Of a stretch of DNA of 64,000 bases, positions 27,257-55,977 are shown piece by piece. The position numbers and the translations under genes are program-made. Location of the stretch: sequence record OR699282.2. One strand, written 5' to 3'. This DNA comes from Escherichia phage BAU.Micro_ELP-22. The notes under the pieces were generated by a model, which saw nothing but the letters and a program-made list of their open reading frames with translations, searched no databases and was not told where the DNA came from. The stretch's first letter is position 1. Each line of letters begins with the position of its first letter.

Positions 27257-27499
27257 ATGAAAGTACTGACAGAACTAGAAATGTATCATAGATTTAATAA
27301 GTACTATCATTTACTTAAGCCTATACAGAGGATTAAATGTCCATTTGAAGAGAAACAGGTTTTAATCTATGAGCACAAGTTCTTTGTATCATTAGGTACA
27401 GATCAACAAGAGTACTATTTGACGTTGTACTTGATTACATTAATAGATTTAATTCACTATAAAACCAAACAAGCTAATAAAGAGAAATATGAAAACTAA
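27257..27499 (+). CDS. F1 paralog (80 aa)
   Basis: Track ORF 27224 trimmed to ATG 27257; LGTDQQEYYL core. Confidence 0.6.
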   Translation: MKVLTELEMYHRFNKYYHLLKPIQRIKCPFEEKQVLIYEHKFFVSLGTDQQEYYLTLYLITLIDLIHYKTKQANKEKYEN

Positions 27500-27833
27500 T
27501 ATACAACTCAAGGTATATAAATCATTTGAACATACATATATCAAAAGTAGTCTATGTAGAGATGTAATGGATTACAAGGGTAAGCCATTCACAATTACCT
27601 ATGATTCTTATGTTAGTGATTTATATATATCATTTGTTAATTACGAAAATAAAATATACAAGCACGTTGATATTAAAGATTTAAGTACTTTATCACCAGA
27701 GGAATACTTTCAGGAATCATTAGTATGGGATTTAGAGTTTCCTATGCCATTAGTACATAAGATGATAGTACTAATGAAAGAATCTAAACAGGAGCCTAAT
27801 GGTGATTATGAAGAACACACAGTTGAGTATTAA
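27489..27833 (+). CDS. large tandem family F2 paralog (114 aa)
   Basis: PEEYFQESLVWD core followed by short helical C-terminus. Confidence 0.6.
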   Translation: MKTNIQLKVYKSFEHTYIKSSLCRDVMDYKGKPFTITYDSYVSDLYISFVNYENKIYKHVDIKDLSTLSPEEYFQESLVWDLEFPMPLVHKMIVLMKESKQEPNGDYEEHTVEY

Positions 27834-28203
27834 AAGTACTGATAATATTAAGAGTTATACAAGCTCAAGTACTGTGACAATCGAAGTGAATTCTCTTAAT
27901 GCTGGTAATACAGTAGATAAGTTCTTTATTGCTCAAGGGTACAGGAAAGATATTCATCAATATTGTTCAGTATATGGGGAGTACAATAGTACTGAAGATA
28001 TAATTTATTGGTCAACACATCAAGATTATATAACTAAAATTGGCGTTCCAGATGTTAGTACTTTATCTGAAGAAGAATACTTTCAGTACAGCTTAATATG
28101 TGATGTACCTATACCTTTAGGGTTAATCAAGGGTATACAGGAAGAGGTTCATAAGCTTAAATCCATGAGTAAAGGTACTTTCATTAGAACAGTGCAATAC
28201 TAG
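27799..28203 (+). CDS. F2 paralog (134 aa; start uncertain)
   Basis: EEEYFQYSLICD core. Confidence 0.6.
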   Translation: MVIMKNTQLSIKSTDNIKSYTSSSTVTIEVNSLNAGNTVDKFFIAQGYRKDIHQYCSVYGEYNSTEDIIYWSTHQDYITKIGVPDVSTLSEEEYFQYSLICDVPIPLGLIKGIQEEVHKLKSMSKGTFIRTVQY

Positions 28204-28204
28204 C

Positions 28205-28233
28205 TTGACAGTACTTTTCATTACTGATATAGT
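28205..28233 (+). promoter_or_regulatory. sigma70-like promoter inside array
   Basis: TTGACA 28205-28210, 17-bp spacer with AGTACT, TATAGT 28228-28233. Confidence 0.55.
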
Positions 28234-28262
28234 ACACTAACGTTAATCATAGGGTAAAAATT

Positions 28263-28508
28263 ATGTTAAATTTTTTAAATTTTCTTATCGTCTTGTGTAT
28301 TGTTCTTGGGATTGCACCATTTGTATTGTATTTCATGGATTCAGATGAAATGCAAAAGATGAATTGCACAAGGACAGGACAGAGTAGAGTAGAGACGATT
28401 CTTATGCCTGTTACGGTTATTGTTAATAATATGCCCATTACCAACATGGTCCCTACCCTAACGACAACGTACCAGTACTCTTGTGCTGACGGAGAGAGGT
28501 GGAGATGA
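28263..28508 (+). CDS. small membrane protein (81 aa), not a family member
   Basis: N-terminal hydrophobic helix FLNFLIVLCIVLGIAPFVLYF; own promoter; SD AGGG. Confidence 0.6.
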   Translation: MLNFLNFLIVLCIVLGIAPFVLYFMDSDEMQKMNCTRTGQSRVETILMPVTVIVNNMPITNMVPTLTTTYQYSCADGERWR

Positions 28509-28816
28509 AATTTAATATAGCAAAAACATCGAGTATATGTATTTTTGGTTATGCAGAAGAGTTAGGTGATATTGACATTCTTTTGTACAAAAAGGATGGT
28601 GTTATGCATTTCAAGTACCAGGATGAAGAGGCAGACAATTATCTTTTACCTAATTTAGTACAAATGCAGGAAGAGGAATTATTCCAGTACAGCTTAGTAT
28701 ACGACATTGATATTTGCACGATGCCAGTACTAATTAGTATTCAAAAAGTGATGCTCGATATGTATGATAAGCTAATACAAGGTATGTCAGGGAGGATCAT
28801 TGAAATTGACATATAA
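28505..28816 (+). CDS. F2 paralog (103 aa)
   Basis: Track ORF 28499 (GTG) trimmed to ATG 28505; EEELFQYSLVYD core. Confidence 0.6.
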   Translation: MKFNIAKTSSICIFGYAEELGDIDILLYKKDGVMHFKYQDEEADNYLLPNLVQMQEEELFQYSLVYDIDICTMPVLISIQKVMLDMYDKLIQGMSGRIIEIDI

Positions 28817-28838
28817 GAATATACCTAATGCATATGAA

Positions 28839-29012
28839 ATGAAGTACAGGGAGTTTATTAAAAATGTACACACCGATCCTTTTAATATCAAAATATCAGA
28901 GTTTGATGTATTATTTTATCTAGGGTCAATAGCACAGGATCAATGCGTTGATAAGCTCATATGGTCCTTGAAAATGGAGATACAATGCAGACCCAAATAT
29001 ATAAAAAGGTAG
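28839..29012 (+). CDS. F1-type paralog embedded in F2 array (57 aa)
   Basis: Track ORF 28800 (TTG) trimmed to ATG 28839; FYLGSIAQDQCV core. Confidence 0.55.
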   Translation: MKYREFIKNVHTDPFNIKISEFDVLFYLGSIAQDQCVDKLIWSLKMEIQCRPKYIKR

Positions 29013-29248
29013 ATTCTTTATTGTACGCTTCAAAGTACAGGGATTTTTGTTTACGAGGGGGAGAGGAAGATTTCTCTCTGAGATTATCTGAATTTAATAT
29101 GTTATTTTATCTTGGTACAAAAGATCAAGAAGATACAGTACAGAAATTTATCAAGCACCTTGAACAAAAAATTAATATGCAAATTTTGATGCTTAAGTTA
29201 CAGAATGAGATAAATGAATATGAATCCAGAAATAGTTCAGGATCTTAA
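28961..29248 (+). CDS. F1-type paralog embedded in F2 array (95 aa; alt ATG 28985)
   Basis: FYLGTKDQEDTV core. Confidence 0.55.
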   Translation: MVLENGDTMQTQIYKKVDSLLYASKYRDFCLRGGEEDFSLRLSEFNMLFYLGTKDQEDTVQKFIKHLEQKINMQILMLKLQNEINEYESRNSSGS

Positions 29249-29754: not shown

Positions 29755-29958
29755 ATGCAAAAGATTAATACGATAACATTAAATGCATTACAGGATTCAT
29801 TATTAGATAGTATTAAGATGTATTACAATATACATTTGAAGGGTGGTATTGATAATTACGATTATTATTTGAGTTTAATTACATTTGAGCACCTTTCAGT
29901 ACAGGACAGGATTTTACATCCTACAAATCCTAGGTATCCATCGATAGGTAAATTATGA
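29755..29958 (+). CDS. hypothetical protein (67 aa)
   Basis: ATG 29755; ATGA overlap with next gene. Confidence 0.5.
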   Translation: MQKINTITLNALQDSLLDSIKMYYNIHLKGGIDNYDYYLSLITFEHLSVQDRILHPTNPRYPSIGKL

Positions 29959-30503
29959 ATGAGATAGAGTTATTAGCACACAAGATAAGTACAATAATGC
30001 TTATCCTCAATAACAACCATCCTATATCGCATATAGATGGAATCCTGAGTCAGAGAACAGGTGGTAGTTTATATTTGTCCATAAACGCAGATATCGCAAG
30101 GAAATACATTGATATTGATGTTGAAATCGAATATGATACAACGGGGATTGTTGATGTAGGTGCATTAATCAGTTCAAATCCAGTATCAGCATCCCCATTG
30201 ACCAAAGGTGTTAGTACAGGATTCGAAGGGTATTTGTGGTACAATACCAATGATGATTATTTTATATATCAGCATTCCAATACAAATTATGATGAAGACA
30301 AATTTCAGTTCATAGACCCTTATGATGAAGCTGGCGTATTCCAACAATCATTAATCACAAAACCGCATGAGATGATGTATCTAATGTTATTCAGTACAAT
30401 GCATTTGAATTCATTAATTAAAGGTTTAAAATTTTATATTCAATTAAATTTAGTCCATGTAGTTTATGATTTATTAATGCAAGGATATAGTTATGAAGTA
30501 TAA
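29955..30503 (+). CDS. F2 paralog (182 aa), member of duplicated unit
   Basis: MNEIELLAHKIST N-terminus and LMQGYSYEV C-terminus shared with 30575..31081; VFQQSLI core. Confidence 0.65.
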   Translation: MNEIELLAHKISTIMLILNNNHPISHIDGILSQRTGGSLYLSINADIARKYIDIDVEIEYDTTGIVDVGALISSNPVSASPLTKGVSTGFEGYLWYNTNDDYFIYQHSNTNYDEDKFQFIDPYDEAGVFQQSLITKPHEMMYLMLFSTMHLNSLIKGLKFYIQLNLVHVVYDLLMQGYSYEV

Positions 30504-30574: not shown

Positions 30575-31081
30575 ATGAATGAGATAGAATTATTAGCACA
30601 CAAGATTAGTACAGTAATGCTTATGCTCAAGAATAATCATTCTATGCATAAGTACATTTATATAGGTGATTTACGCATAGAAGATAGATATGATAAATTA
30701 TCGTTTTTGTTTAAAGATGAAAGTAATGCAAAAGTTTGTTTTGCAGCATTTGCCCAAGGCAATCCAGAACAAGCATCTCCTGTTATATACGAAAATAGTG
30801 AAGGGTATTTGTGGGTCAACACAAACGATTATTTCTTTTATGATTTGAAACAAAATGATGAAGTAGAAGCACGAATTGATTTAATTGATATTAGTTCAGA
30901 TTGTAGTTCTGAATTATTTCAGAAATCGTTATTATACAGTCCTCGTCAAATACATTATCTAAAGTTATTCAGTTCATTGTACGCGAATCCTTTAATTAAG
31001 GGTTTTAAATTTTATATCAAAATTCCGTACCTTTCAAACGTTTATGATATTTTGATGCAAGGATATAGTTATGAAGTATAA
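30575..31081 (+). CDS. F2 paralog (168 aa), duplicated unit
   Basis: Paralog of 29955..30503; ELFQKSLLY core. Confidence 0.65.
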   Translation: MNEIELLAHKISTVMLMLKNNHSMHKYIYIGDLRIEDRYDKLSFLFKDESNAKVCFAAFAQGNPEQASPVIYENSEGYLWVNTNDYFFYDLKQNDEVEARIDLIDISSDCSSELFQKSLLYSPRQIHYLKLFSSLYANPLIKGFKFYIKIPYLSNVYDILMQGYSYEV

Positions 31082-31382
31082 AATGATGTATACCCCAGAT
31101 ATGATTTATGTTGAATTAGAAGATGATGACGATGGGTGGAATTTGATTTATTCAAGAAGTTCAGGTTGGTACATGGCACATTTAAATGATTCGATAGTTA
31201 CAGATTATTTTGTAGATTTCAATACATTATCCGATGAAGAATTGTTCCAACAGCAATTAGTGATTGACACGGGTGGTTATGATGTCTTATTATTAAAAAA
31301 GATACAAAAAGCTGTTATTGATTTTAAGCCCATGATATGGCAAAGGAAATATTATGACCTCGAAGTACCATACCAGCAATGA
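31071..31382 (+). CDS. F2 paralog (103 aa)
   Basis: DEELFQQQLVID core. Confidence 0.6.
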   Translation: MKYKMMYTPDMIYVELEDDDDGWNLIYSRSSGWYMAHLNDSIVTDYFVDFNTLSDEELFQQQLVIDTGGYDVLLLKKIQKAVIDFKPMIWQRKYYDLEVPYQQ

Positions 31383-31920
31383 AATTCAGTACACCTACGC
31401 TAATGCCATCCTTATGGGACAAAAGTTAGCTTGTATTGTTGCAGCCTTATATAATGCCCAGAAATATCACAAGCGTCATTTCCACAAATGTATTGGTATT
31501 ATTCCATCGAAGTACAATACATATATTGCGTGCACGAGTCATTTTGATAAACGATTCAATACACCTGATACCCCAAATTCCCGTAGTGTTATTGGTCTTT
31601 TGGATTTCGCCCCTGGTGCTGTTATTGGAAAGAATGATTTAGAGTACGCATGGTATAATAAAAATGCCCCGTTAGTAATGGTAAAATATGATACAGAAAC
31701 GAACAAAACAATAGAGTACAATACATATAAATCAGAGGAAGAATTTTTCCAAGGTTCATTGCTTGTACCAGTGCGTTTGTTGTTTTATAATGTCCTTATT
31801 AGTACAGTACACAATAGTCCATTACACAAGAATCACAAAATTAATTTCAATTTTTGTGCTTATGCGATTGATGGTGTGTATGAGTGTTTAATGGAGGTAT
31901 TGAGTTATGAAGCTGAATAA
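31354..31920 (+). CDS. F2 paralog (188 aa; start uncertain)
   Basis: EEEFFQGSLL core. Confidence 0.6.
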   Translation: MTSKYHTSNEIQYTYANAILMGQKLACIVAALYNAQKYHKRHFHKCIGIIPSKYNTYIACTSHFDKRFNTPDTPNSRSVIGLLDFAPGAVIGKNDLEYAWYNKNAPLVMVKYDTETNKTIEYNTYKSEEEFFQGSLLVPVRLLFYNVLISTVHNSPLHKNHKINFNFCAYAIDGVYECLMEVLSYEAE

Positions 31921-32248
31921 TACATTTGATATTAATAAGTTAAGAGAATGGTTTTATAGTATTGAAATTGAAGCCATCCCGTATCATAGATATGAACAAT
32001 ATAATTTAACCAGTATTGATATCAGTGAGTTGTACGCGTATTATCAAAGTGCATTAGAGATGCATAAGTTATTTTTGAGTACAGATTTTGTTCTAAATTA
32101 CAATTTTGAGGAATTTAAAAATTATAATTTAGTACAGAAATATGTAGTAGCAAAGTACATGTACAATCAAGGAATCAAAGGTTGCATCGAATTCAATACC
32201 GTTCTTGTTTTAGTTGAGGTAATTTTATGCACCGCATGTCTGATTTAG
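31907..32248 (+). CDS. F2-like paralog, divergent (113 aa)
   Basis: ELYAYYQSAL variant core. Confidence 0.5.
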   Translation: MKLNNTFDINKLREWFYSIEIEAIPYHRYEQYNLTSIDISELYAYYQSALEMHKLFLSTDFVLNYNFEEFKNYNLVQKYVVAKYMYNQGIKGCIEFNTVLVLVEVILCTACLI

Positions 32249-32733
32249 AGTTCAGTTTAGATGCAGCATTTAAATTTGTTCACAAAATAGAAACAATATA
32301 CAGTACATTATGTGCAATAACATCAGTATCAAAAGAGCTTGATGTTGGTGAAAGGTATCAGGTGTGGAATAATTCATTTTTTAATAAAGAACATTCTTCG
32401 ACGGCATTTTATATTTTAGCATTTAATCCCAGCAATTGTTACCCAGAGAAGCATGAACGTTATCCGAATGACGACATGTGGTTTGAGTACAAAGAAGATT
32501 CTGATATGTCGTCAATTGTAGTTCCTGATGATTTTAATGCACAAGATTTAACAGAAGAGTGGTGGTTCCAGCAGAATTTAGTACATGATGATATTGATTT
32601 ATTTTTCTATATTGCATTTAAAATGCTTTATCACAACAATATAGTTAAAGAAAGTGTATCGTTTTCATGTCTATATATTGATGATTTGTACAATGAAATT
32701 CAAATAAACATGCCCAGAACGCCTGTATCGTAA
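32227..32733 (+). CDS. F2 paralog (168 aa)
   Basis: EEWWFQQNLVHD core. Confidence 0.6.
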   Translation: MHRMSDLEFSLDAAFKFVHKIETIYSTLCAITSVSKELDVGERYQVWNNSFFNKEHSSTAFYILAFNPSNCYPEKHERYPNDDMWFEYKEDSDMSSIVVPDDFNAQDLTEEWWFQQNLVHDDIDLFFYIAFKMLYHNNIVKESVSFSCLYIDDLYNEIQINMPRTPVS

Positions 32734-32815
32734 GATATGGGCTTTTTTCGTTTTGGTATTGACATAGAAGACCAAAGCTGTTATCATGTGTATTCATTTT
32801 AAAGGAGAACATATA

Positions 32816-33328
32816 GTGAGTTTCATAATCCCAAGTACATACGAAGATGCATCAAGTGCAGTTCATAAGATTCATTATATTTTTAATTTAATTATTAGAT
32901 CTGCAAAAATTAAAATGTATGCACCTCTTGTGACAAATAATCGAAATGAAGAAATTTTTATTAGCACAGACAAAATTATTTTTCCATATTTCAATGAAGA
33001 TAGATTGTGGTTCATACATTTAGCTGCATTACAAAAATATAAGATGTCAATTCGTAATAATTTGGTTATACCGTTATATCATCCCGATATTGGAGAGGAT
33101 GAGTATTTTCAGTACAGCACAGTACACCGCCATGAAGATATCTTTGCTGCTATGCTTATTGCTAAATTGAACACCGTTGATTTGGAGCAGTACAAATACA
33201 ATAATAAATCATGTAAGATCATAATCCCTGCATTCATAGCTCTTTATGATTATGTGGTGCATAACAAAAAAGATGATACATATGCTTTCAATGAAGAGTA
33301 TTTGAATTTTTTTAAGGAGAAAATATGA
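32816..33328 (+). CDS. F2 paralog (about 170 aa; GTG start favoured)
   Basis: GTG 32816 has strong SD AAGGAG at 8 nt; alternative ATG 32786 lacks SD; EDEYFQYSTVH core. Confidence 0.55.
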   Translation: MSFIIPSTYEDASSAVHKIHYIFNLIIRSAKIKMYAPLVTNNRNEEIFISTDKIIFPYFNEDRLWFIHLAALQKYKMSIRNNLVIPLYHPDIGEDEYFQYSTVHRHEDIFAAMLIAKLNTVDLEQYKYNNKSCKIIIPAFIALYDYVVHNKKDDTYAFNEEYLNFFKEKI

Positions 33329-33864
33329 GCAGTACAACAGTATCAAAAGTACAGAAAGCAATGTCATTCAATGAAATTGGTACATTTAAAGATAAGATCA
33401 TTGATTGCCTTGAATACATGATTTGTAGTAATATCGAAAGTATCGAGATATTTAACAAGACAAATCGCTCTTACCATATGATGTACATTGCAAACAATAA
33501 TGGTATCATTCCATTTATTTCGGATAGTACAATATGGTACGCATGTGATACGAAAAAATACACAGCAGGTTCGTATAGCTTAGGGTCACATACGGAATTG
33601 ATTATTCCTGAGCATTGTATGCAAGAAGAAGAATATTTTCAAATGCAATGTATACATTCACCATTAGTGTTGTTTAGTTTATATATTATACCTTATATCA
33701 CCAAATGTGTTCATGAGAATAAAGCTCCGTGGAATCATGAATTTGTATCGTTGAAGTTATTGTATAATGTATTAGTAGAATATTATGATTACAGGCACAA
33801 TGGTACAATCAGTGATGTATGGGAATTTGAATCGCTAAGGGTGAAAACATACACAGGTGAATGA
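33325..33864 (+). CDS. F2 paralog (179 aa)
   Basis: ATGA overlap; EEEYFQMQCIH core. Confidence 0.6.
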   Translation: MSSTTVSKVQKAMSFNEIGTFKDKIIDCLEYMICSNIESIEIFNKTNRSYHMMYIANNNGIIPFISDSTIWYACDTKKYTAGSYSLGSHTELIIPEHCMQEEEYFQMQCIHSPLVLFSLYIIPYITKCVHENKAPWNHEFVSLKLLYNVLVEYYDYRHNGTISDVWEFESLRVKTYTGE

Positions 33865-34480
33865 TATGACCAGAATTAAAATGTATGATTTGATGCAGTA
33901 CAGTAAAATTGCCATTCCAGTGCTTAATAAAGTGCTGGATGCATTCATTGCCAAATACCCTGAGAATTCAGTGTTATGTATTCCATTTAGTGTTCCAGAT
34001 AAAGATGATATATTCCAAGTGAATGTCAGTACACGTGGTATTACATTACAGCAGAAATACATGGATACGGAATATTATGGAATAAAGTTGGATTCAGTAC
34101 AGGGTTCAAAATCAGCCTATGATTTTTTTGTTCCTAATAATATAGAGTCATGGGAAACAAACATTTCAAAGAAAGATGAAAATGATGTTCCTATTAGTGG
34201 TGTGTTCAACAATAAAGTTTTTTATTATTACGAAACCGACAAATTCCCTGAAGAGTTATATTACAATTCAGAAATGAATGAAGATGTAGATGCATTCATG
34301 TTTCAATTATCTTTAGTACATGATATCATTGATGTTCAAGAGTTAAGAGCAGAAATCAATTTAGCTAAAGAGTTATCGGACATGCTGCCACCGTTTAGTA
34401 TGCTTTTTTGTGAAGGTGGTTATTTTTCAAAAGAAGTGTTTGAACATTTCGTAGATGTTGTAAAAGGGTTGGATATATAG
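33857..34480 (+). CDS. F2 paralog (207 aa)
   Basis: DAFMFQLSLVHD core. Confidence 0.6.
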   Translation: MNDMTRIKMYDLMQYSKIAIPVLNKVLDAFIAKYPENSVLCIPFSVPDKDDIFQVNVSTRGITLQQKYMDTEYYGIKLDSVQGSKSAYDFFVPNNIESWETNISKKDENDVPISGVFNNKVFYYYETDKFPEELYYNSEMNEDVDAFMFQLSLVHDIIDVQELRAEINLAKELSDMLPPFSMLFCEGGYFSKEVFEHFVDVVKGLDI

Positions 34481-34684: not shown

Positions 34685-35203
34685 ATGCATCAACACAAGC
34701 ATCATTCATATGATTTTGCAATTAACATTATGAAGTTCATTCGAGCGTTGGAGGATGGGAAGCTTAGTCATAAGTACAGAAAAGAGGGTAACAATTGGTT
34801 CAGAAATGATGATGATGAGTTCAGAAGTCATAAGATTGTTTACAGCAATAATTACAGTGCCAATTACCTACAAGATGTAGTGATGTGTTTTGAATACGTG
34901 TTGCAGTTCAGGGGTTCAATCCAGGATGAGTTGATGGAGCACATGTACATCAGATACCTTCCAATGCTCAAAGATGAAAATGTATTATTAAATTCAATAT
35001 ACCAACGAGTTCGTGAAATTGAGTGCAGGGATATATTAGATACAGAAGAATCGTATTTCCAGCAATCCCTGATTTATGCACCTGATTTATTACAGGTACA
35101 TAATTTGTTTAATACATTACGTCAAAACATCAGTACAGACATATTTTTGTCATTATCGGATTATGATACATTTGTCAAAGATTTAGAGGAAATAGGTTTA
35201 TGA
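34685..35203 (+). CDS. F2 paralog (172 aa)
   Basis: EESYFQQSLIY core. Confidence 0.6.
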   Translation: MHQHKHHSYDFAINIMKFIRALEDGKLSHKYRKEGNNWFRNDDDEFRSHKIVYSNNYSANYLQDVVMCFEYVLQFRGSIQDELMEHMYIRYLPMLKDENVLLNSIYQRVREIECRDILDTEESYFQQSLIYAPDLLQVHNLFNTLRQNISTDIFLSLSDYDTFVKDLEEIGL

Positions 35204-35544
35204 GTCAATTTTCGGTTTATATAGTAAACGTCAGTAAAGATGGTAGTTTAATTGAATTTGATGTAGTTGATAACAATGATAATTCATATGGTATTAAGGT
35301 ACAGGACAATGATGTACAGTTCAGTACAAGGACAAATTTTGAGAATCCAGTCCAAGTTCCGAATTTCATAGAAGATGAAGCTGCACGATTCCAATACGAA
35401 ACGGCATATGACAATGTACATATGCATATTATTATGCAAACGAGTTTAGTTCAATTAGTTCCTTTGTTCAGACAAAATATATATGTACATGAAGTGTCGA
35501 TTAATGGCATTCAAAGTTCCGTTTTGTTCGGTACAAATATGTAA
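35200..35544 (+). CDS. F2 paralog, divergent (114 aa)
   Basis: ATGA overlap; ARFQYETAYD core variant. Confidence 0.55.
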   Translation: MSQFSVYIVNVSKDGSLIEFDVVDNNDNSYGIKVQDNDVQFSTRTNFENPVQVPNFIEDEAARFQYETAYDNVHMHIIMQTSLVQLVPLFRQNIYVHEVSINGIQSSVLFGTNM

Positions 35545-35554
35545 GGAAAGTACA

Positions 35555-38475: not shown

Positions 38476-38476
38476 A

Positions 38477-47019: not shown

Positions 47020-47545
47020 TAATGTAAAATGCATTGCCGACATTTGTATAAAATTAATGAAAATTTTCATTAACCCAAAATACAAGACTCGTTCTTTACG
47101 TCATAATATTGATGAGCATTGTACCATTAATATACTAGGTAGTATTCTTGATGTAAAATATGATGGTAAAATGTTATTCGGTATAAGAGAAGAGAAGATA
47201 GATGATGCATTCTTTTCTTCTAAAGATAAATTTGAACCTTCTGATTATAAAGTGATTATTCGTGATGATAGCATCTATATTAGTAGTGATTATTCAAATT
47301 ACTTCGATAAAATATACACTGAAAACGTTGACTACCATTATGAAATGATTGATTTACCAGTAACAGACATTGATATGGAGAGAATCAAATTTTCATTATC
47401 AGATAATGAGTACTTAGGTATACAAACATATTATTCACTACAAGGAAAGATTCCACCTGCTATGTATATAAGGATTGAGATTGGTAATGTATTCAATGAT
47501 AAGGTTATATCAATTGCTGATAAAATATTGAGGGTTGAATTATGA
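47003..47545 (+). CDS. hypothetical protein in array (180 aa), core not evident
   Basis: Long ORF, ATGA coupling to next gene. Confidence 0.5.
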   Translation: MYIENDNVKCIADICIKLMKIFINPKYKTRSLRHNIDEHCTINILGSILDVKYDGKMLFGIREEKIDDAFFSSKDKFEPSDYKVIIRDDSIYISSDYSNYFDKIYTENVDYHYEMIDLPVTDIDMERIKFSLSDNEYLGIQTYYSLQGKIPPAMYIRIEIGNVFNDKVISIADKILRVEL

Positions 47546-48105
47546 ATATCAATGATTACCAATTTCATAGGCTTGAATTTCGTCATTGTGTTGCATTTGC
47601 AAAAACATTGATGTGCATCATTGACACTCTTTCATCCAAACAATTTCGTAAGGATAATGATTTATTTCTGAAAAAAGGTCGTGTAACATCATCCGATATC
47701 AGTGTTGAACTATTTGTTGATATCAGTGTTGATACCGGAGACAGTACAAGGGTTGGTTGTATAGGTCATATTGGTACACATTGCTTCACATGGAATCCAA
47801 ATACAAGTCAAGTACGAATTGATTATAGAAATTCACGTTGGGTTGATCTTAGTACTGAATCCGATTTAGAATCAGCTATGTTCCAGCTAAGTTTAATTCA
47901 CAATCCTAATGAACTTCTTTACATTATTACTTTCAGTTATCTGTTACAAAACTACGATAATCCATCAGGGTTTTTCATAGAATCGGATATAGAAGAAATT
48001 ATGGAAGAGTTTCCTAGTTTAAAGGATATTCTGGAAGAAAAAGATTTCTATGAAGACTTCAGAGATTTATACGACATGCACTTGGAGTTATTTAAGAATG
48101 GATAA
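47542..48105 (+). CDS. F2 paralog (187 aa)
   Basis: ATGA overlap; LESAMFQLSLIHN core. Confidence 0.6.
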   Translation: MNINDYQFHRLEFRHCVAFAKTLMCIIDTLSSKQFRKDNDLFLKKGRVTSSDISVELFVDISVDTGDSTRVGCIGHIGTHCFTWNPNTSQVRIDYRNSRWVDLSTESDLESAMFQLSLIHNPNELLYIITFSYLLQNYDNPSGFFIESDIEEIMEEFPSLKDILEEKDFYEDFRDLYDMHLELFKNG

Positions 48106-48616
48106 AGATGATATTCTAATTAGACTAATTAAGAGTTTAATAAAGTTCTCAAATAATGATGTCGATACATACAAAGTAGGGGATATTGAATTCAAATCAT
48201 TTGGTATGTACGGTGAGGACAAAACATATTATGCGTCAATGAAAATTCAAGATTTTCACGAGATGTTAATATCGTTATCATATGAAGATGTTGATCCAAG
48301 ATGGAGTTCCAGTATTTCACTATCGAGAATGGTAATTCGTAGTAAGCATCGTTACATTTCGTCAAAGAATACTCCTAACTTGATTAATATTGTGTTGAAT
48401 GAAAATACCAATCCTATATCTAAACTTGATATCGTACCGTTAACCGATGAAGTACTTTTTCAATTGAGTACCATTTGTGATGAAGATGTGATATCATGTA
48501 TGAAAATTTATGAGACGGTTGGGAGTGATATTCCCATGAACTATTACCTAACGATAGATGGAACATACCTCAGAGATGAAGCTCTAGCGTACATTGACAG
48601 TGTTTTACCAAAATAA
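48098..48616 (+). CDS. F2 paralog (172 aa)
   Basis: Track ORF 48050 trimmed to ATG 48098 (overlaps upstream stop); DEVLFQLSTICD core. Confidence 0.55.
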   Translation: MDKDDILIRLIKSLIKFSNNDVDTYKVGDIEFKSFGMYGEDKTYYASMKIQDFHEMLISLSYEDVDPRWSSSISLSRMVIRSKHRYISSKNTPNLINIVLNENTNPISKLDIVPLTDEVLFQLSTICDEDVISCMKIYETVGSDIPMNYYLTIDGTYLRDEALAYIDSVLPK

Positions 48617-48640
48617 AGACCCTTATTGGGTCTTTTTGTG
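48617..48640 (+). terminator. Rho-independent terminator inside array
   Basis: AGACCC-TTATT-GGGTCT then TTTTTGTGTTT. Confidence 0.75.
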
Positions 48641-48648
48641 TTTACGTC

Positions 48649-48677
48649 TTTACAGTAGCATTCAGATGTGTTATAAT
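48649..48677 (+). promoter_or_regulatory. Promoter with extended -10
   Basis: TG-T-TATAAT 48669-48677; weak -35 TTACAG; precedes gene 48705. Confidence 0.5.
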
Positions 48678-49271: not shown

Positions 49272-49852
49272 ACCATATCAGAACTAAAATTTTGAGACTC
49301 ATGCATGACATTGCAGAACTTTCAGAGATTCATGACATTACAGAAATTGTTGAATTTGATGATTATCGACTGAAAATTGAAAACAAATCCAAACATCGTT
49401 TTGGATCAGTTCAGTTGGATGTATATAAAACTTATGAATTTTCTAAAAAAATTAAAAGTTCATGGGATACGATTACTATGTACATTCGCACATCCAGAAA
49501 TCGTGAACGTATTGGTTCTATTTCTTCTAATATGGTATTTGCGAATGCATTACATGAAAAAATGAATAAAATTGTAGAATCTGATTTCAGTGAAGATGAT
49601 GGTTTTATTGGGTTGGATGTTCCACCAGAATTAGACCAAAGTGAAGATATTCGAGATGCATTCATTTTCCAGAAATCATTGTTGGACAATTACAAAGAAT
49701 TCGAGTACTTAATGCTTTGTTACGATACTGCAAAAGTTCTTGATTGTGGTGAACTAGTTATGTACAATGATTTTATCAATTACAAGACTGATGTTCTGAA
49801 TACACTACTTCAAAATATAGAATCGGTTAAGGAAAAATATGAACGCTTATAG
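49268..49852 (+). CDS. F2 paralog (194 aa)
   Basis: ATGA overlap; DAFIFQKSLLDN core. Confidence 0.6.
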   Translation: MNHIRTKILRLMHDIAELSEIHDITEIVEFDDYRLKIENKSKHRFGSVQLDVYKTYEFSKKIKSSWDTITMYIRTSRNRERIGSISSNMVFANALHEKMNKIVESDFSEDDGFIGLDVPPELDQSEDIRDAFIFQKSLLDNYKEFEYLMLCYDTAKVLDCGELVMYNDFINYKTDVLNTLLQNIESVKEKYERL

Positions 49853-50417
49853 TTATATGACAGAACGCCATCAGTTATTATATGATATCAGTACAAAAAT
49901 GTTATCAATTGTTAGTAGTGCAAAAGAAATTGAAAAACAATACCTCATCCGTGATGTAGCAATTTCATCTAAATGTTGGTCCAATGAATATTACGATCAC
50001 GGTATTCTTACTATTTCTGGGGCTAGAAATATTTGTATTGTAAAAAATAAAAATAAAAGTAATGAAGAGTGTGAGATTATAACCGATATACAAATTAAGG
50101 ATGATGGAAGTTTTTCACACCACCCATTCCATATTAGTACTATTGGTGTTTTATATAATATTAAAGTACTATTCGGTGATGAAGAGTATGTGTTAAAATC
50201 TATCAATCCAGAATCAAGTACAGTTGAAGAAGAACTGTTCCAGATGAGCACTGTTATACCTGAAGAGGTTCTTAGTACTGTTATTTTTTGTAGTTTAATT
50301 TATCATGAATACAAAAAGTACCAGTTCGATTTCCACATGTTAGGAACATACATCTTCAATAATTTGAATGTAGATCGTTTAACAGCATTAAATGCAGCAA
50401 TGGATAAGGTGCTATAA
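49839..50417 (+). CDS. F2 paralog (192 aa)
   Basis: EEELFQMSTVIP core. Confidence 0.6.
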   Translation: MNAYSYMTERHQLLYDISTKMLSIVSSAKEIEKQYLIRDVAISSKCWSNEYYDHGILTISGARNICIVKNKNKSNEECEIITDIQIKDDGSFSHHPFHISTIGVLYNIKVLFGDEEYVLKSINPESSTVEEELFQMSTVIPEEVLSTVIFCSLIYHEYKKYQFDFHMLGTYIFNNLNVDRLTALNAAMDKVL

Positions 50418-50845
50418 TGACAAGAGATGATTGTTTGTACATATGGGATATAATTGAAACTACACTTTCAAATCCAGAAAATTATAAAACAAAAAAAAGA
50501 CAACGACACAAAATATGGATAGATTTGTTCGTTGAGGGCATACACGCAGTGACTATTTGGGATTCACCGAGGGCATCATCATCTACTCTGTTGGACAATG
50601 AATGCATTGATTGCATTAATTCCACTTTTCATCTCCACGGTACTACAATTTTTGGTACATTTCTGGATATTGAAAGTAAAGATGATATTGATTCACTTGC
50701 GTTACAATACCAAGTACTATATAATACTAAATTAATTTACGATTTAGTACTAGCTTCTTATGTGTATAAATTAATGATGAAATATAATCATATTTCTGTT
50801 TCAGTTTATACTAAGGATATTCTTTCATTAAGAGACAAAACATGA
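50417..50845 (+). CDS. F2-like paralog, divergent (142 aa)
   Basis: Variant core SLALQYQVLYN. Confidence 0.5.
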   Translation: MTRDDCLYIWDIIETTLSNPENYKTKKRQRHKIWIDLFVEGIHAVTIWDSPRASSSTLLDNECIDCINSTFHLHGTTIFGTFLDIESKDDIDSLALQYQVLYNTKLIYDLVLASYVYKLMMKYNHISVSVYTKDILSLRDKT

Positions 50846-51351
50846 GTTTATTAAATGCACGCGAATTGGTTGAGATGTATGAGATTTTGTCTTCATATAA
50901 AAATTCTCCAAAAGATGTAATTCTAAACAAAAAGTTCCATGTCAGTGTTGAACATATAACAAATATAGATATGATTTCTTTGGTGGAAAGTAATAAGTCA
51001 GGTCTGGAGCGTGATATCATGCGTTTGATTTATATTCCTAAACCATCATATACTAATGATAGTACTATTAGCAATGAGACATTCATGTATAGTCCTGGTA
51101 CGGATTCTACTATAGTATCGCTGTCCAATAAATCAATGGATACTTTCCAATTCATCTATACCAGTACTGATAACATTGAAGAAATTGAATTTCAAAACAA
51201 TACATTAAGTCCATGTAGTAGTGTTATAACCTTTATGTCATATCTATGGTCAACTAAAACAAGTGCTGTTGTATATAGTTCAAATTATACACAAGATAGT
51301 ATTGTTGAATCATATAAAGTTCTAAAGGAATACTATGAAAATAACAAATGA
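50842..51351 (+). CDS. hypothetical protein in array (169 aa)
   Basis: ATGA overlap; weak variant MDTFQFIYTSTD. Confidence 0.5.
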   Translation: MSLLNARELVEMYEILSSYKNSPKDVILNKKFHVSVEHITNIDMISLVESNKSGLERDIMRLIYIPKPSYTNDSTISNETFMYSPGTDSTIVSLSNKSMDTFQFIYTSTDNIEEIEFQNNTLSPCSSVITFMSYLWSTKTSAVVYSSNYTQDSIVESYKVLKEYYENNK

Positions 51352-51916
51352 TTTTATTAAAAGTGTAGTACACCCTATGCTTAGTATTATGAAAAAAATA
51401 CAGAATCTACCGGAAGATAACGATTACAAGTTTAATCGTTTTGATTCAGATGTGTTTTGTATTGAAATTGAAATTAATAACAATCGTAATTTACATTTAA
51501 AATTCAAAGAATCTTCGAGTCCGTACTACAACTTTGATATGAATTTTAAAATAGATACTGACATTGAAGAAAACGTAATATCAAATCATACTAGCAAAAA
51601 TGGTTTTATGCATAGAACTACTATGTACAATAATAAAAATAGTATTATATCTAAATGGAATCAACAATTCACTAAAATTTGTGAAATTGAATATAATGAT
51701 TTTGGTGAAGAACATTACTTTCAGTTAAGTACAATTCATGAACTTCCACCATATGATTATGTTAAAACATGGTTTGATATTCATAATATAATTGATGATG
51801 CAATCAAACTTCCATTTGGTGTGTCAATATCATATACTGCTCCTAAAACATTTGTTTTTACTGAAGATATGATTATGAAAAAGATATGGGCAATCATCCC
51901 ACTTATGATGGATTAA
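51335..51916 (+). CDS. F2 paralog (193 aa)
   Basis: EEHYFQLSTIHE core. Confidence 0.6.
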   Translation: MKITNDFIKSVVHPMLSIMKKIQNLPEDNDYKFNRFDSDVFCIEIEINNNRNLHLKFKESSSPYYNFDMNFKIDTDIEENVISNHTSKNGFMHRTTMYNNKNSIISKWNQQFTKICEIEYNDFGEEHYFQLSTIHELPPYDYVKTWFDIHNIIDDAIKLPFGVSISYTAPKTFVFTEDMIMKKIWAIIPLMMD

Positions 51917-51921: not shown

Positions 51922-51947
51922 TACCAGGGGTTGACTCTGGTTTTTTT
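51922..51947 (+). terminator. Possible terminator (short stem, long T-run)
   Basis: ACCAGG..CTGGT then TTTTTTT; overlaps candidate -35 TTGACT. Confidence 0.4.
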
Positions 51948-51977: not shown

Positions 51978-52529
51978 ATGAACTACAATCATGATCTTTT
52001 TACATTATGTGCATCCAAATGTGTTGAAGGATGGGCAGATAAAATCAATACCATAATTCATCGATATCTCGTCTTTAGTTCCCGTGCACGAAGTGAGGGG
52101 GCTATGGATTTCAAATATACACTATCTATTGATGGTGTAACTATCCATGCAGACGAAGAACGTCTGAACATTAATTTGTATGATTCCTGTGTATTTGCTA
52201 TTCACCAAAAGATGGGGAAAGGATGGGGTTGTAATAACATTAACTCCAAAGCTATCTTTTGGGTTGGTCACCATCAGACAGTACTTGATCCTTCAATCAA
52301 ATCTAATCTTTTATCCGATAATATGGTTTATGATTTATTGTACTCCGAAGAACAACATTTTCAGTTAAGTACATTACATGATCTGGCACAGTACGAGGAT
52401 TGTTACAAAACATTAGAACTATGCCATTCCCTTGAACTTAAAGATAAATTGATACAAGTTTACCCTTCATTCTTTCATGAAGAAGTACAAAGTACACTAG
52501 ATCATATTTTATATGGATACGATAAATGA
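51978..52529 (+). CDS. F2 paralog (183 aa)
   Basis: SD AAGGAG; EEQHFQLSTLHD core. Confidence 0.6.
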   Translation: MNYNHDLFTLCASKCVEGWADKINTIIHRYLVFSSRARSEGAMDFKYTLSIDGVTIHADEERLNINLYDSCVFAIHQKMGKGWGCNNINSKAIFWVGHHQTVLDPSIKSNLLSDNMVYDLLYSEEQHFQLSTLHDLAQYEDCYKTLELCHSLELKDKLIQVYPSFFHEEVQSTLDHILYGYDK

Positions 52530-53128
52530 GAAAAAGTTATCAAGAAGCTATTGACTTAATTCGTGAAGTTATCAAGGTGGCTCCTGCTGCTATTGAGTTC
52601 AAGAAGTCCATATACAAGAAGTATGGTTCAATGTCGAGTATGTGCTTTCAAAAGAAACGTAGAGCATTCACTACCCAGTACTGGAATGATTCTATCATCC
52701 TGAGCAATGAGACTCAGCGTATTTTAACACTAGAATCTGAACCTAATGAGTACGGGGAAGGGAACATTTGTGTACCTGATTATGATGAAATTAACTTCAA
52801 CTGCGGTGATTTTGAAACAACATTATTACTTCATGAGGGTTATCCAGAAGGTGATGTATTAGCTGAGTACAATCCAAAAACTAAAATTCTCAAAAGAGGA
52901 ATCCAGTTCACTATTAATAACAAAGATGATGTTCAAGCAGCACTGATGCAACTGAGTACAAGTGAACCTATCACTATTAGTGTAGAAGAGTTATGGGGAA
53001 TTATTTCAGTACTCAATGAGTGCTACAAAGTAAAATCATTGCGTAAACACAGCATTATATTACATACCAATATGGCAAATATAAAATGTAAGCACATTCA
53101 AGAAATGGTGGTTCCAGATGGACTTTAA
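52526..53128 (+). CDS. F2-like paralog (200 aa)
   Basis: ATGA overlap; variant AALMQLSTSEP. Confidence 0.5.
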   Translation: MRKSYQEAIDLIREVIKVAPAAIEFKKSIYKKYGSMSSMCFQKKRRAFTTQYWNDSIILSNETQRILTLESEPNEYGEGNICVPDYDEINFNCGDFETTLLLHEGYPEGDVLAEYNPKTKILKRGIQFTINNKDDVQAALMQLSTSEPITISVEELWGIISVLNECYKVKSLRKHSIILHTNMANIKCKHIQEMVVPDGL

Positions 53129-53702
53129 AGAAATTGAAAGTAAATTAAAGTACTTCAAAGATATCAAACTTCTTTGGAAAAAGTATAAAGTTGATTACAA
53201 TTTCAGTGATGATGAGACAATAAAATACATTGAGATTAATATCAAAATCAAGTTCAAGAATAATAATTATGGTGAAGTAACCTTAAATCATACTGGTATA
53301 TCACTCAAGGACTATGATGGTACAACACTCGCATATTTTGACTTCACACCAGAACCAGGTGAAACACTACTTAGTGAGATAAATTCCTATGACATGGAAG
53401 TGTTCGGCGGGAATCCGTTACTGTTCCGACTTTCTGAAGAGTGGAGTGAAGAGTACTACACTTACAAAGATGGTGTAGTACTTGACATTCATGGAGAAGT
53501 TGTGAATGACTTGGAAGAACGTTTGTTCCAAGAATTGTGTGTTTCAAATACTTCATATGCATACAATCATATCCTTGACATGTTTGATTTATATAGTAAA
53601 ATAGATGCTGAAATGAAGGCACATGGTATTCATTACCTTACAATTAACGACTATGCTCAACTCGAAACCGCTGTGAAAGCATTGACTAAAGTACTGAAAT
53701 AG
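53118..53702 (+). CDS. F2 paralog (194 aa)
   Basis: EERLFQELCVSN core. Confidence 0.55.
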   Translation: MDFKEIESKLKYFKDIKLLWKKYKVDYNFSDDETIKYIEINIKIKFKNNNYGEVTLNHTGISLKDYDGTTLAYFDFTPEPGETLLSEINSYDMEVFGGNPLLFRLSEEWSEEYYTYKDGVVLDIHGEVVNDLEERLFQELCVSNTSYAYNHILDMFDLYSKIDAEMKAHGIHYLTINDYAQLETAVKALTKVLK

Positions 53703-53711
53703 GAATGAAAT

Positions 53712-54125
53712 ATGAAACTGTATCATGCGAGTACTGTAAAAATTGATAACTTTTATATCCCGTATGGTGGTCTTCATATGGGAGGTAAACACAGTGCTTT
53801 GGAAGCTGCATTACGCAAGCTGAGAAGCCCACTGAACGTAGTAGACGCATGTACAGTATACTTGCATACCTTAGAAGTTGATGTTGATAACGTGCTTCTG
53901 TGTGAAGATTTAGGCAGTGATGATGAGTGGCGTTCACTTATTGAGAATTGCACTGCTCAAGGTTATGATGCTGTTCAGTACAAAAATGATTACGAGCCAG
54001 ACAATGTTCCTAGCTTTATGATTTGGGATGCATCTAAAGTTCGCATCATTGAAGTTGATGCTATGCATATGGATGAAGCTGAAATGATTATCGAAGATTT
54101 TCTTGATGAATATGAAGGTGTATAA
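53712..54125 (+). CDS. hypothetical protein (137 aa), not a family member
   Basis: ATG 53712 with SD AGGAA; no F1/F2 core; acidic C-terminus. Confidence 0.55.
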   Translation: MKLYHASTVKIDNFYIPYGGLHMGGKHSALEAALRKLRSPLNVVDACTVYLHTLEVDVDNVLLCEDLGSDDEWRSLIENCTAQGYDAVQYKNDYEPDNVPSFMIWDASKVRIIEVDAMHMDEAEMIIEDFLDEYEGV

Positions 54126-54661
54126 TGACTGACCCGATGGTAGCACTGGCACGTACTAAGTTACTATTAAAGATTGGTGAGATTTTTACGGTTCTTCTGT
54201 CCAATAATATTGATATTACTGAGCTAGATATTAAGCAACCGTGGGAAGTGACTATGTTCTCGGCGTTCCACCGATTGTCATATAAAGGTGAAAGTGTTCT
54301 TGATTTTAACCCTAAAGCAAAATTCATAGATTATGCTGCGTTGTACAGAGAGTTGCACCGAAATATTTATTCCGGTTGTATAACCAATAACTTCAAAGAA
54401 ATTAAAGTTCAAACTGCATCACATGAGTTCAATGATTTACTTTATCCAGAATTTAATCTAACGGAAGAATTACTCTTTCAGTACTCGTTAATTCTCACAA
54501 ATCTCGAAACGCTAGAGTACTACAAAGAGTTAGTAGATATTTTTATGAATACACGTCTTTCAAAAGATATTGTGATATTCTGGTATACAGAGCATGTTAC
54601 GGAGGAATTGCTTACTGAATTTCTTCTAAATATGACAGCTATAAAGGAGAAGTTATGTTAG
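54125..54661 (+). CDS. F2 paralog (178 aa)
   Basis: TEELLFQYSLIL core. Confidence 0.6.
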   Translation: MTDPMVALARTKLLLKIGEIFTVLLSNNIDITELDIKQPWEVTMFSAFHRLSYKGESVLDFNPKAKFIDYAALYRELHRNIYSGCITNNFKEIKVQTASHEFNDLLYPEFNLTEELLFQYSLILTNLETLEYYKELVDIFMNTRLSKDIVIFWYTEHVTEELLTEFLLNMTAIKEKLC

Positions 54662-55128
54662 ATATTTTAGGAAACATCGACACTGCAAATTATTTTATTC
54701 AAGATGCATTGTTTAATACAGTACAACAAGGTTTAGAAGTTCACCACAATGTTTATCAGGGTGATGGATATTTTGTTGATATTATCGAGACACGTAAAAA
54801 TACATTTAATGTTAACATTACGACGCTTGGAAGACAGAACATTGCACGAATTTTAGTAAGTAAAGATGAAATAGTACTGAGATACAGTGCTAAGTTTATG
54901 TTGACTTATAAGAAAAAAACTGATATGTTCAGTACTAATTTATTTGATGAGCCATTTGACCTTGAAGATATTGAAGCTACTTTCTTTACTCAAAGTACTA
55001 TGGTAAAATACACTGATGTTCAATTTTCTGCTGATGTAATGTCGGAAACATTACAAATGATCAAGGTATTATTTTATGCATTTGAGCAATTTAGAGAAGA
55101 AAGAAACAAGGTTAACAACCACAGATGA
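54655..55128 (+). CDS. F2-like paralog (157 aa)
   Basis: Variant core EATFFTQSTMV. Confidence 0.5.
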   Translation: MLDILGNIDTANYFIQDALFNTVQQGLEVHHNVYQGDGYFVDIIETRKNTFNVNITTLGRQNIARILVSKDEIVLRYSAKFMLTYKKKTDMFSTNLFDEPFDLEDIEATFFTQSTMVKYTDVQFSADVMSETLQMIKVLFYAFEQFREERNKVNNHR

Positions 55129-55489
55129 ACTAATAGAGGCGATCACTAAGGAGTCAAAATACCACAAAGGGATTCGTCTATATTTTATAGATATTGGTTC
55201 AATGGAAGGCATATACATTTATGGTTCACAATCTTTATCTTATGATGTAATGCCAAAAAAACATGTAAAAATCTTTTTAGGTTCAGATAAAAAAACTTTC
55301 TTGACAATTAATGATAAAAACGTTATTATGAATTCGTTGGGTCATGATAAGGTGGAAATTGATCTAAACACACTGGAGGATATTGATTTTTTTCAATACG
55401 AGTGTTTAGGTGTTGACTTACATGGCATTAGTAGCGATATGATAAAATCATTAATCAAATATTTCGAAGGTGTTCATAAATGTATCTAA
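55076..55489 (+). CDS. F2-like paralog (137 aa; start uncertain)
   Basis: Variant core DIDFFQYECLG. Confidence 0.5.
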   Translation: MHLSNLEKKETRLTTTDELIEAITKESKYHKGIRLYFIDIGSMEGIYIYGSQSLSYDVMPKKHVKIFLGSDKKTFLTINDKNVIMNSLGHDKVEIDLNTLEDIDFFQYECLGVDLHGISSDMIKSLIKYFEGVHKCI

Positions 55490-55977
55490 CTAAATCAATG
55501 AAAAATTCATTTGATAAAATCAAGAGTTGTCTTGATGGGGAAAATATTACAAGTGTTACACAAACTGCTGACCAAATTCAAAGCAGTTCAAGTGATTGTA
55601 CTGTTATTTTAGGTTTACATAGTCTACGTTTATCAATAGTAAATAATATTGACAACACTGCTATTGTAATCACACCATGCCATATTCAAAATGAGAATGG
55701 TGTATATCTTCATCACATGGGAACAGTATTTCATATTTTCAATACAAACGAAAACATTGTTAAGGAATACAAATCTCTTAATATTGATTCAGGTGAATTA
55801 TTTCAAATGAGTACTTTGTACTCATGTAATTTTACAGATACTTCATGTATTTTGCCATTTTTCTTGGAAATTATTAAGAAAATGGAAAATTTAAAACGTG
55901 AATACAATAAAGAAATGGTTCCTGAAGCTATATTAAATATTACTAATGCTATAGAGAAGTATAATGCAGTGACTTAA
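55480..55977 (+). CDS. F2 paralog (165 aa)
   Basis: SGELFQMSTLYS core; last member before array ends. Confidence 0.6.
   Translation: MYLTKSMKNSFDKIKSCLDGENITSVTQTADQIQSSSSDCTVILGLHSLRLSIVNNIDNTAIVITPCHIQNENGVYLHHMGTVFHIFNTNENIVKEYKSLNIDSGELFQMSTLYSCNFTDTSCILPFFLEIIKKMENLKREYNKEMVPEAILNITNAIEKYNAVT

Follow-up and report, generated by a model that had tools for sequence, protein, structure and literature searches.

The tandem, diverged multigene families that lie beside the terminal repeats of large linear double-stranded DNA (dsDNA) viral genomes include MGF360, MGF505 and MGF110 of African swine fever virus (ASFV) and the Bcl-2-like and ankyrin/PRANC families of poxviruses, for which roles in immune evasion and host range have been shown experimentally. 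Phages carry host-takeover modules at their genome ends, such as the pre-early genes of T5, the terminal-redundancy module of SPO1 and the early genes of T4, and their anti-defence repertoire includes Ocr, Tad1, Tad2 and Acb2, which are small, soluble, often acidic proteins that act early as binders or sponges. Dozens of copies of one small domain, with a guessed function, are known from the Bacillus jumbo phage G, which encodes about 35 zinc-ribbon proteins (PMC7824862). Here we describe a protein family, termed L, encoded by an array at positions 27489–55977 (plus strand) of a 64,000-nucleotide (nt) stretch of Escherichia phage BAU.Micro_ELP-22 (record OR699282.2; hereafter, the window). The array comprises 66 co-oriented open reading frames (ORFs), with 39 certain and 45 supported family members.

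The L array resembles the ASFV and poxvirus families in consisting of tandem, diverged and apparently non-structural paralogs beside a terminal repeat of a large linear dsDNA genome, and in a repertoire that differs among close strains, as mosaic and coverage comparisons indicate here. It differs in that those families belong to eukaryotic viruses, have unrelated folds and have experimentally established roles, whereas we infer the role of L. With the modules of T5, SPO1, T4 and the jumbo phage PA5oct it shares small genes at or beside the terminal redundancy, strong host-type promoters and, putatively, early expression, but those modules are made up of unrelated genes, as against at least 40 copies of one fold in L. 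Ocr, Tad1, Tad2 and Acb2 are single genes that form no arrays and have no sequence or fold likeness to L. The zinc ribbons of phage G have an unrelated fold, L proteins being without conserved cysteines, and their expansion is found in one phage, whereas L occurs in at least two genera, strictly in tandem beside the terminal repeat. Large paralog expansions in big viruses are known; what is new is this family, together with its fold and the scale that it reaches in a phage. No description of the family was found in the literature searched, including a comparative review of jumbo phages, and the paper on Klebsiella phage RaK2 remarks generically that about 10% of the proteins of that phage are paralogues (PMC3622015).

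A first-pass annotation of this DNA had proposed a roughly 28-kb array of about 50 paralogs with a short shared motif, and its bounds proved exact, 27489 being the start of the first member and 55977 the end of the last. The regular expression [DE][DE].[YFLHWIM]FQ.[SN] matched 25 ORFs within the array and none among the other six-frame ORFs, and shuffled array proteins gave a mean of 0.023 matches. A hidden Markov model (HMM) iterated from the motif-bearing C-termini converged, over 253 ORFs searched, on 39 plus-strand ORFs and no minus-strand ORF. Because this iterated test is circular, we built an independent HMM from foreign relatives only (133 sequences: RaK2 proteins and database proteins less than 45% identical to any window protein). 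It recovered 39 of the 39, added four ORFs and matched nothing outside 27489–55977; profile comparison with hhalign added two more and confirmed two of the four. These additions are probable members at 33857–34480 (207 amino acids [aa], AFMFQLSLVHD; independent HMM E 0.0058, hhalign 88%), 35200–35544 (114 aa, degenerate motif ARFQYET; independent HMM E 3.8e-4, expanded HMM E 9.2e-5), 41489–42025 (178 aa, DEQCFQLSC; hhalign 90%) and 50842–51351 (169 aa, EEIEFQNNT; independent HMM E 3.4e-6, hhalign 66%), and possible members at 47003–47545 (180 aa; hhalign 57%) and 52526–53128 (200 aa, AALMQLSTS with F replaced by M; independent HMM E 0.0023, without hhalign support), all on the plus strand.

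Some six further ORFs carry a degraded motif; several are distal, 137–194 aa long, with the motif at the expected place and insignificant scores. The ORFs at 48705, 49268 and 50417 have a rightly placed motif-like segment, with scores that are not significant. Neither hhalign nor the HMM tests supported membership of the ORFs at 28263, 29214, 31907, 42931, 53118, 53712, 54655 and 55076. The family in the window therefore has 39 certain, 45 supported and at most about 51 members, making the initial figure of roughly 50 slightly generous. The description of nearly every gene as a member-type ORF was likewise overstated: about 20 of the 66 non-nested ORFs of at least 50 aa are small non-members, four of them copies of a second family, S, considered below. 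The tight packing described at the outset holds, with 58 of 65 junctions overlapping or separated by at most 15 nt, 13 of them as exact 4-nt and four as 1-nt overlaps; only seven intergenic gaps exceed 40 nt.

No database treats these proteins as one family. The 39 certain members matched no Pfam family at E ≤0.01, gave only isolated single-member chance matches in NCBIfam and PADLOC, and returned nothing in sequence-profile searches of the PDB. In PHROGs they are spread over 24 groups, all of unknown function (9317, 12674, 13866, 15629, 19795 and 19 that are singleton-like), and each member matches its own group at E 1e-50 to 1e-142. An HMM search placing the module in a well-characterised family of known function had been named as one outcome that would refute the observation; Pfam, NCBIfam, PADLOC and the PDB place it in none. 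The profile and database searches thus bear out the proposal of a single, uncharacterised and unusually expanded family at the protein level.

The array had first been taken for a peculiarity of one phage, which it is not. By megablast, the window belongs with the jumbo coliphages of the Asteriusvirus group (PBECO4, 121Q, SP27, G17, phAPEC6), with SP27 97.8–98% identical across the array region, and all 35 matching Asteriusvirus-type records carry the array. RaK2, which belongs to a different genus, has at least 33 L and 12 S members at 245–276 kb, followed by Dam methyltransferase and cytidylyltransferase genes, as annotated just past the phAPEC6 array. An exhaustive profile search returned 174 clusters at the 50% identity level (E ≤1e-3), all of 65–210 aa and nearly all covering the greater part of the profile. 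For about 100 of these clusters, no protein of the window or of RaK2 reaches 45% identity, and with few exceptions they keep [ST]EExYFQxS[LT][VIL]Y. Repeating the search at E = 10 yielded only one extra protein. The Escherichia coli jumbo phages A4 and JNE01, of the same group, have members less than 45% identical to any in the window. At the nucleotide level, a degenerate DNA pattern of the motif found 121Q, RaK2 and two metagenomic contigs in IMG/VR and ten true loci in metagenomes, typically with several tandem members; in 100,044 cellular species genomes it gave three chance matches, none of them accepted by the HMM. A tblastn search with the HMM consensus had no match, probably from low-complexity masking, and positions 128–177 kb of Serratia phage BF, checked for synteny, contain structural genes but lack an array.

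The window and RaK2 arrays share 13 collinear reciprocal best hits (Spearman 0.80, p = 0.001), and for 25 of 41 window members the closest relative is another protein of the same genome, often a neighbour, as in the tandem duplicates at 37984–40296 and 36777–37974. From the collinear hits and the within-genome relatives together we therefore read the array as ancient and evolving by birth and death. Tandem duplication accords with these neighbouring relatives; the unequal crossing-over proposed at the outset is not ongoing, since DNA-level repeats are confined to motif codons and a few old duplicates at 60–80% identity. L is an old multigene family that arose by tandem duplication and is restricted to RaK2-like jumbo phages.

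Against phAPEC6, the pooled ratio of non-synonymous to synonymous substitution (dN/dS) is 0.31 for 38 L ortholog pairs, 0.37 for the S array and 0.12 for flanking genes, and DNA comparison upheld the remark that codons vary at synonymous positions of the motif. The L ORFs are, on this measure, real genes under somewhat relaxed purifying selection. The phAPEC6 comparison is also mosaic, with orthologs only 43–75% identical (30575, 39853, 40293, 41046, 46525) between neighbours of 98–100%. Of the 35 related records, only 4 contain 80% or more of a 25-kb part of the array in one piece, as against 30 records for the adjacent 8 kb at the same level; array coverage is 23% in A4 and 1% in JNE01 and Turkey5.

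AlphaFold2, run on the paralog alignment, predicted a confident single compact domain for the 163-aa member 37984–38475 (mean predicted local distance difference test [pLDDT] 84.9, predicted template-modelling score [pTM] 0.80). The model comprises helix 3–22, five strands, helices 103–107, 113–120 (the motif) and 125–139, strand 145–148 and helix 149–158, that is, an alpha/beta fold with an N-terminal helix, a five-strand sheet with variable loops, the motif helix, a tight turn, a long helix, a strand and a final helix. The motif, [ST]-E-E-x-Y-F-Q-x-S, lies on a short helix with pLDDT above 90, and the inter-strand loops are of lower confidence. Short members (about 105–135 aa) are reduced to a core made up of a hairpin, the motif helix and the long helix; the model of one, 37259–37618, shows a confident hairpin, motif helix, long helix and strand (core residues 61–100, pLDDT 88–97) and a disordered N-terminus. 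Structural matches in BFVD were solely to 121Q, SP27 and RaK2 paralogs (template-modelling score 0.45–0.65), and comparison with solved structures in the PDB revealed no resemblance to the predicted fold. L proteins are small (about 105–210 aa) and mostly acidic (median isoelectric point [pI] 4.94; 32 of 39 below 5.5). No convincing membrane segment was found in the 39 members, the one hydrophobic stretch, in 36777, lying within a probably mis-called N-terminal extension, and the proteins are predicted to be soluble. They share no conserved N-terminal peptide or targeting propeptide, the N-termini differing or, in short forms, being absent.

In an alignment of the 39 members, F117 and Q118 alone are invariant (numbering of 37984–38475). 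Across 164 representatives from the window, RaK2 and databases, each less than 50% identical to the others, the F is kept in 100%, the Q in 99%, S120 in 91% and E113 and E114 in about 80% each, with identity otherwise at about 15%. Conserved positions run along the full length (A10 and I13 in the N-terminal helix; Y36, Y79 and Y82 in strands; E113, E114, F117, Q118, S120, Y123 and F145), and homology therefore spans the whole protein. The claim that the N-terminal two thirds cannot be aligned thus stands for pairs of neighbours and fails at the profile level. The related picture of a variable N-terminal effector fused to a conserved C-terminal module fits the short members, which retain only the C-terminal core, and does not describe the long ones, which form one compact domain with a conserved N-terminal helix and sheet. 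Hydrophobic core positions outside F-Q interchange, for example among Y, F, W and I, and the invariance of F-Q amid such exchange points to a functional site common to the family rather than to packing alone.

The position of the array bears on its likely time of expression. Positions 1–15614 of phage fEgEco12 align to window positions 1–16794, and the fEgEco12 genome has a direct terminal repeat of 20,993 bp with mapped physical ends (PMC13070987); on these grounds we take the window start to be the left physical genome end. From that end, the order is the terminal repeat of about 21 kb, the S-family array of 27 small basic paralogs and the L array, which is therewith placed close to the left direct terminal repeat, on its inner side, and has the same orientation as this promoter-rich repeat of the linear genome. 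The first 20 kb contain 101 sigma70-like promoter matches, as against 66.8 ± 9.5 in shuffles, and window positions 1–20000 hold 11 perfect (12/12) sigma70 sites, all on the plus strand. Nearly all of these perfect sites have a 16-nt spacer, and there is about one per small gene. The terminal-repeat genes have intergenic spacers between them, unlike the tightly packed S and L arrays, and carry depositor's annotations typical of early functions (spackle, DksA-like and GNAT proteins, and a kinase).

Within the L array, four of the seven gaps above 40 nt have strong promoter-like sites with an extended −10 element, and three have terminator-like hairpins. The promoter-like sites, which are consensus matches only, are all intergenic, on the plus strand and of sigma70 type with the TG extension: 28205–28233 (TTGACA-17-TATAGT, in a 59-nt gap), 32759–32787 (TTGACA-17-TATCAT, directly past a terminator), 44767–44796 (perfect 12/12) and 48649–48677 (TTTACA-17-TATAAT). 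The plus-strand hairpins lie at 32721–32742 (followed by a T run), 48615–48635 and 51923–51941 (with TTGACT inside). The promoters at 28205, 44767 and 48649 and the terminator at 48615 had been noticed before and were found again; the promoter at 32759 and the terminators at 32721 and 51923 are additions. Together, these elements would cut the array into about eight polycistronic units. Directly downstream of the 28205 site lies a non-member ORF of 81 aa (28263–28508) with a strongly hydrophobic N-terminal segment (Kyte-Doolittle 19-residue mean 2.77), which may encode a small membrane protein.

Our leading, still tentative reading, which keeps the host-interaction or anti-defence role named in the first-pass annotation, is that L is an early, cytoplasmic, non-structural family diversified for host interaction or counter-defence. 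That the proteins are early, cytoplasmic and accessory is suggested by the terminal-repeat neighbourhood, the host-type promoters and the precedent of PA5oct, whose terminal-repeat genes are expressed early and whose infection requires the RNA polymerase of the host (PMC7318152). Turnover of the repertoire combined with purifying selection on kept copies is what would be expected of proteins that face variable external targets. Unmodified host RNA polymerase would read the L genes early, and the products would remain in the cytoplasm, unpackaged, where the divergent sheet and loops of each paralog could bind a different host target, for example a factor involved in defence, takeover or host range. 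A common function or a common structural core would reside in the invariant F-Q site. Birth and death, with cassette-like exchange among phages, would keep strain repertoires different while kept copies stayed under purifying selection.

Several points weigh against this interpretation. Function is assigned by inference, and the case for early timing draws on promoter consensus and on another phage, PA5oct being the only analogy, as we found no Asteriusvirus transcriptome in the literature. Searches for likeness to known anti-defence or host-takeover proteins, Tad1, Tad2 and Acb2 included, found none in sequence or fold. A dN/dS of about 0.3 reflects relaxed purifying selection and demonstrates no positive selection. 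The available virion proteome comes from phAPEC6 only and could miss low-copy proteins. The motif could be purely structural, forming an N-capping box and a helix-turn-helix corner.

A bolder form of the same idea, which we consider unlikely as a whole but worth stating, would make the locus a phage counterpart of the poxvirus and ASFV terminal families: some 45 acidic L and about 31 basic S early proteins, together about 10% of the genome, in which L would have a new fold, all copies would contact one host hub or signalling molecule through F-Q, their variable surfaces would counter many different defence systems, and the repertoire would set host range.

The extreme conservation of the motif invites two further explanations. 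In one, the E-E-x-Y-F-Q-x-S helix might dock all paralogs on a common machine of host or phage (for instance a protease, chaperone, RNA polymerase or ribosome) while the variable part recruits different substrates, as do F-box or PRANC proteins of eukaryotic viruses. Near-complete retention of F and Q, the 80–91% retention of E-E and S against about 15% identity elsewhere, the interchange of other core positions and the reduction of short forms to just the motif core would all suit such an adaptor, but the motif is a well-packed helix within the domain (pLDDT above 90) rather than a free docking peptide, the long forms make up one domain each, not two modules, and no candidate partner emerged; we regard it as rather doubtful. 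An invariant aromatic residue with glutamine and acidic residues is a common means of base recognition, as in the Q motif of DEAD-box proteins. F-Q could accordingly stack on and hydrogen-bond a nucleotide or small molecule, with nearby acidic residues contributing, and the paralogs would then be sponges or enzymes of differing specificity, for example against immune signalling nucleotides. This would agree with the conserved aromatic-glutamine pair and acidic residues and with small, soluble and probably early proteins. The strongly conserved polar residues, however, all lie on one short helix, neither Tad1, Tad2, Acb2 nor the nucleotide-binding proteins of the PDB resemble L in sequence or fold, and more than 40 specificities seem excessive, so that we give this explanation little credence.

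Targets other than host defences also have to be weighed. The L proteins might regulate the phage's own programme or serve superinfection exclusion or inter-phage competition, as could be argued from the early genes near the array, among them a spackle-like exclusion gene of the terminal repeat, and from its co-occurrence in both genera with the basic S family, a possible partner set. Regulators rarely need at least 40 diverged copies, however, and repertoire turnover among close relatives fits an external, variable target better; we see only a slim chance for a phage-internal or inter-phage role and retain the host-directed reading.

Giant phages such as T4 and phiKZ package families of processed proteins, and packaged proteins were among the roles first proposed for this array. 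The L proteins would then be virion or internal-head cargo, cleaved at the motif as at the E-x-x-Y-x-Q|S/G sites of 3C/NIa-type proteases and afterwards packaged or injected; several copies indeed read EEGYFQGS, EEMYFQGS or EEEFFQGS. But the residue after Q (P1′) is variable and the conserved Ser stands one position later (P2′), the motif is helical at high confidence, there is no shared N-terminal targeting sequence, and the phAPEC6 orthologs gp404c–gp466c are absent from the 62-protein virion proteome of that phage (Table 1 of PMC7247149), which, as one proteome of one phage, argues against packaging and makes a structural role unlikely. The variable P1′, the helical motif (pLDDT above 90) and the proteome absence led us to reject the protease-site and virion-cargo readings as very improbable. 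That the ORFs are chance frames or decaying pseudogene debris, for which only their lack of annotation speaks, can be dismissed almost entirely, given the ortholog dN/dS, which refutes it, the conservation of the ORFs across genera, the confident AlphaFold models and a packing that suggests translational coupling.

This jumbo phage group has repeatedly been isolated for therapy, and more than 80% of its genes are without known function. The L family makes up about 8% of the genome, or about 10% with the S array, and a single profile now identifies about 45 proteins in each genome that had been called hypothetical. Mutagenesis can start from the invariant F-Q, the repertoires of different strains can be set against their host ranges, and a structure would be new, the predicted fold having no solved relative. 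Should L turn out to serve as a counter-defence arsenal, it would rank with the largest that phages are known to carry and might lead to new host immune systems; binding of a common host hub by its members would instead amount to a new takeover mechanism.

The certain members are all on the plus strand, and the E values below are those of the iterated HMM unless another is named. The lowest belong to the subcluster at 37984–40296: 37984–38475, the alignment reference and first AlphaFold model with its motif at E113–S120 (5.5e-23), 38477–38947 (156 aa; 5.6e-17), 38944–39384 (146 aa; 1e-17), 39387–39878 (163 aa; 3.8e-20), which is 54% identical to 37984 and forms with it the youngest duplicate pair, and 39853–40296 (147 aa; 2.4e-21). 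Just upstream, 36777–37262 (161 aa as called from a TTG start, the true start probably being later; 3.9e-7) is 37% identical to 37259. Another tandem duplicate, 29955–30503 (182 aa; 9.1e-14), is 41% identical to its neighbour 30575–31081 (168 aa; 5.9e-13), whose phAPEC6 counterpart is only 43.5% identical, a mosaic replacement; the counterpart of 46525–47019 (164 aa; 8.2e-17) is only 63.5% identical. Reciprocal best hits link 47542–48105 (187 aa; 9.7e-11) to RaK2 267428–268036 and 54125–54661 (178 aa; 1.3e-9) to RaK2 274108–274659.

Short forms occur at 27489–27833 (114 aa; 5.7e-12) and 28499–28816 (105 aa; 6.5e-11), both also found by the independent HMM, and at 31071–31382 (103 aa; 1.3e-11), 37259–37618 (119 aa, the second AlphaFold model; 9.9e-13), 37615–37974 (119 aa; 1.8e-10), 40293–40607 (104 aa; 5.7e-10), 43539–43901 (120 aa; 6.6e-11), 43891–44226 (111 aa; 3e-8) and 45778–46140 (120 aa; 5.2e-14). 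The motif reads EEEYFQYS in 27799–28203 (134 aa; 2.3e-11, also independent HMM) and EEGYFQGS in 41046–41492 (148 aa; 3.3e-16). The remaining members of the proximal half are 31354–31920 (188 aa; 1.5e-15), 32227–32733 (168 aa; 8.4e-14), 32786–33328 (180 aa; 1.6e-11), 33325–33864 (179 aa; 6.5e-16), 34685–35203 (172 aa; 4.3e-15), 35483–36106 (207 aa; 2.8e-15) and 40607–41080 (157 aa; 1.6e-15). They are followed by 42380–42940 (186 aa; 2.5e-13), 44186–44770 (194 aa; 1.3e-11), 44830–45306 (158 aa; 9.2e-17), 45303–45788 (161 aa; 8.8e-17), 46124–46537 (137 aa; 3e-6, or 3.8e-13 with the expanded HMM), 48050–48616 (188 aa; 2.6e-14), 49839–50417 (192 aa; 4.7e-14), 51335–51916 (193 aa; 3.6e-14), 51978–52529 (183 aa; 8.9e-6, or 1.6e-6 with the expanded HMM) and the last of the array, 55480–55977 (165 aa; 5.1e-11).

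The S family provides the context of the L array. Its own array (21506–27499, plus strand) starts directly after the end of the terminal repeat and consists of 27 head-to-tail ORFs of 65–96 aa with an LGTNYQE core, in full LGTNYQE..V...I..L; the proteins are basic (median pI 8.69) and correspond to phrog_4148, of unknown function. Four more copies lie inside the L array (28800–29012, 28961–29248, 42003–42221 and 42199–42390), and the 12 of RaK2 are interleaved with L genes. Comparison by hhalign found no relation between S and L (probability 0.2%). One S ortholog pair, 27034–27255 and its phAPEC6 counterpart, has a dN/dS of about 3 (17.5 non-synonymous versus 1.5 synonymous differences) and is the only clear outlier among the phAPEC6 pairs, on small counts.

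Two further features deserve mention. An ORF-less segment of about 365 nt at window positions ~59625–59989 has 70–78% nucleotide identity to segments of Serratia, Yersinia, Erwinia and Xanthomonas jumbo phages, in which it carries no annotation, while its flanks lack conservation. Rfam yields nothing for it even at E = 1, its fold z-score is −2.0, and it may represent a structured RNA not described before. In the terminal repeat, a recurrent cassette consists of a hairpin with a 12-bp stem, AAAGGGATTGACTCCGGTCAGTCCCTTT, with a −35-like TTGACT inside the stem, followed by a TG-extended TATTAT, so that a terminator-like hairpin and a promoter-like site overlap within one element. It occurs at 10632–10659, 14670–14697, 17661–17688 and 19924–19951, and similar elements are found at ~21340–21370 and at the L-array hairpin 51923–51941.

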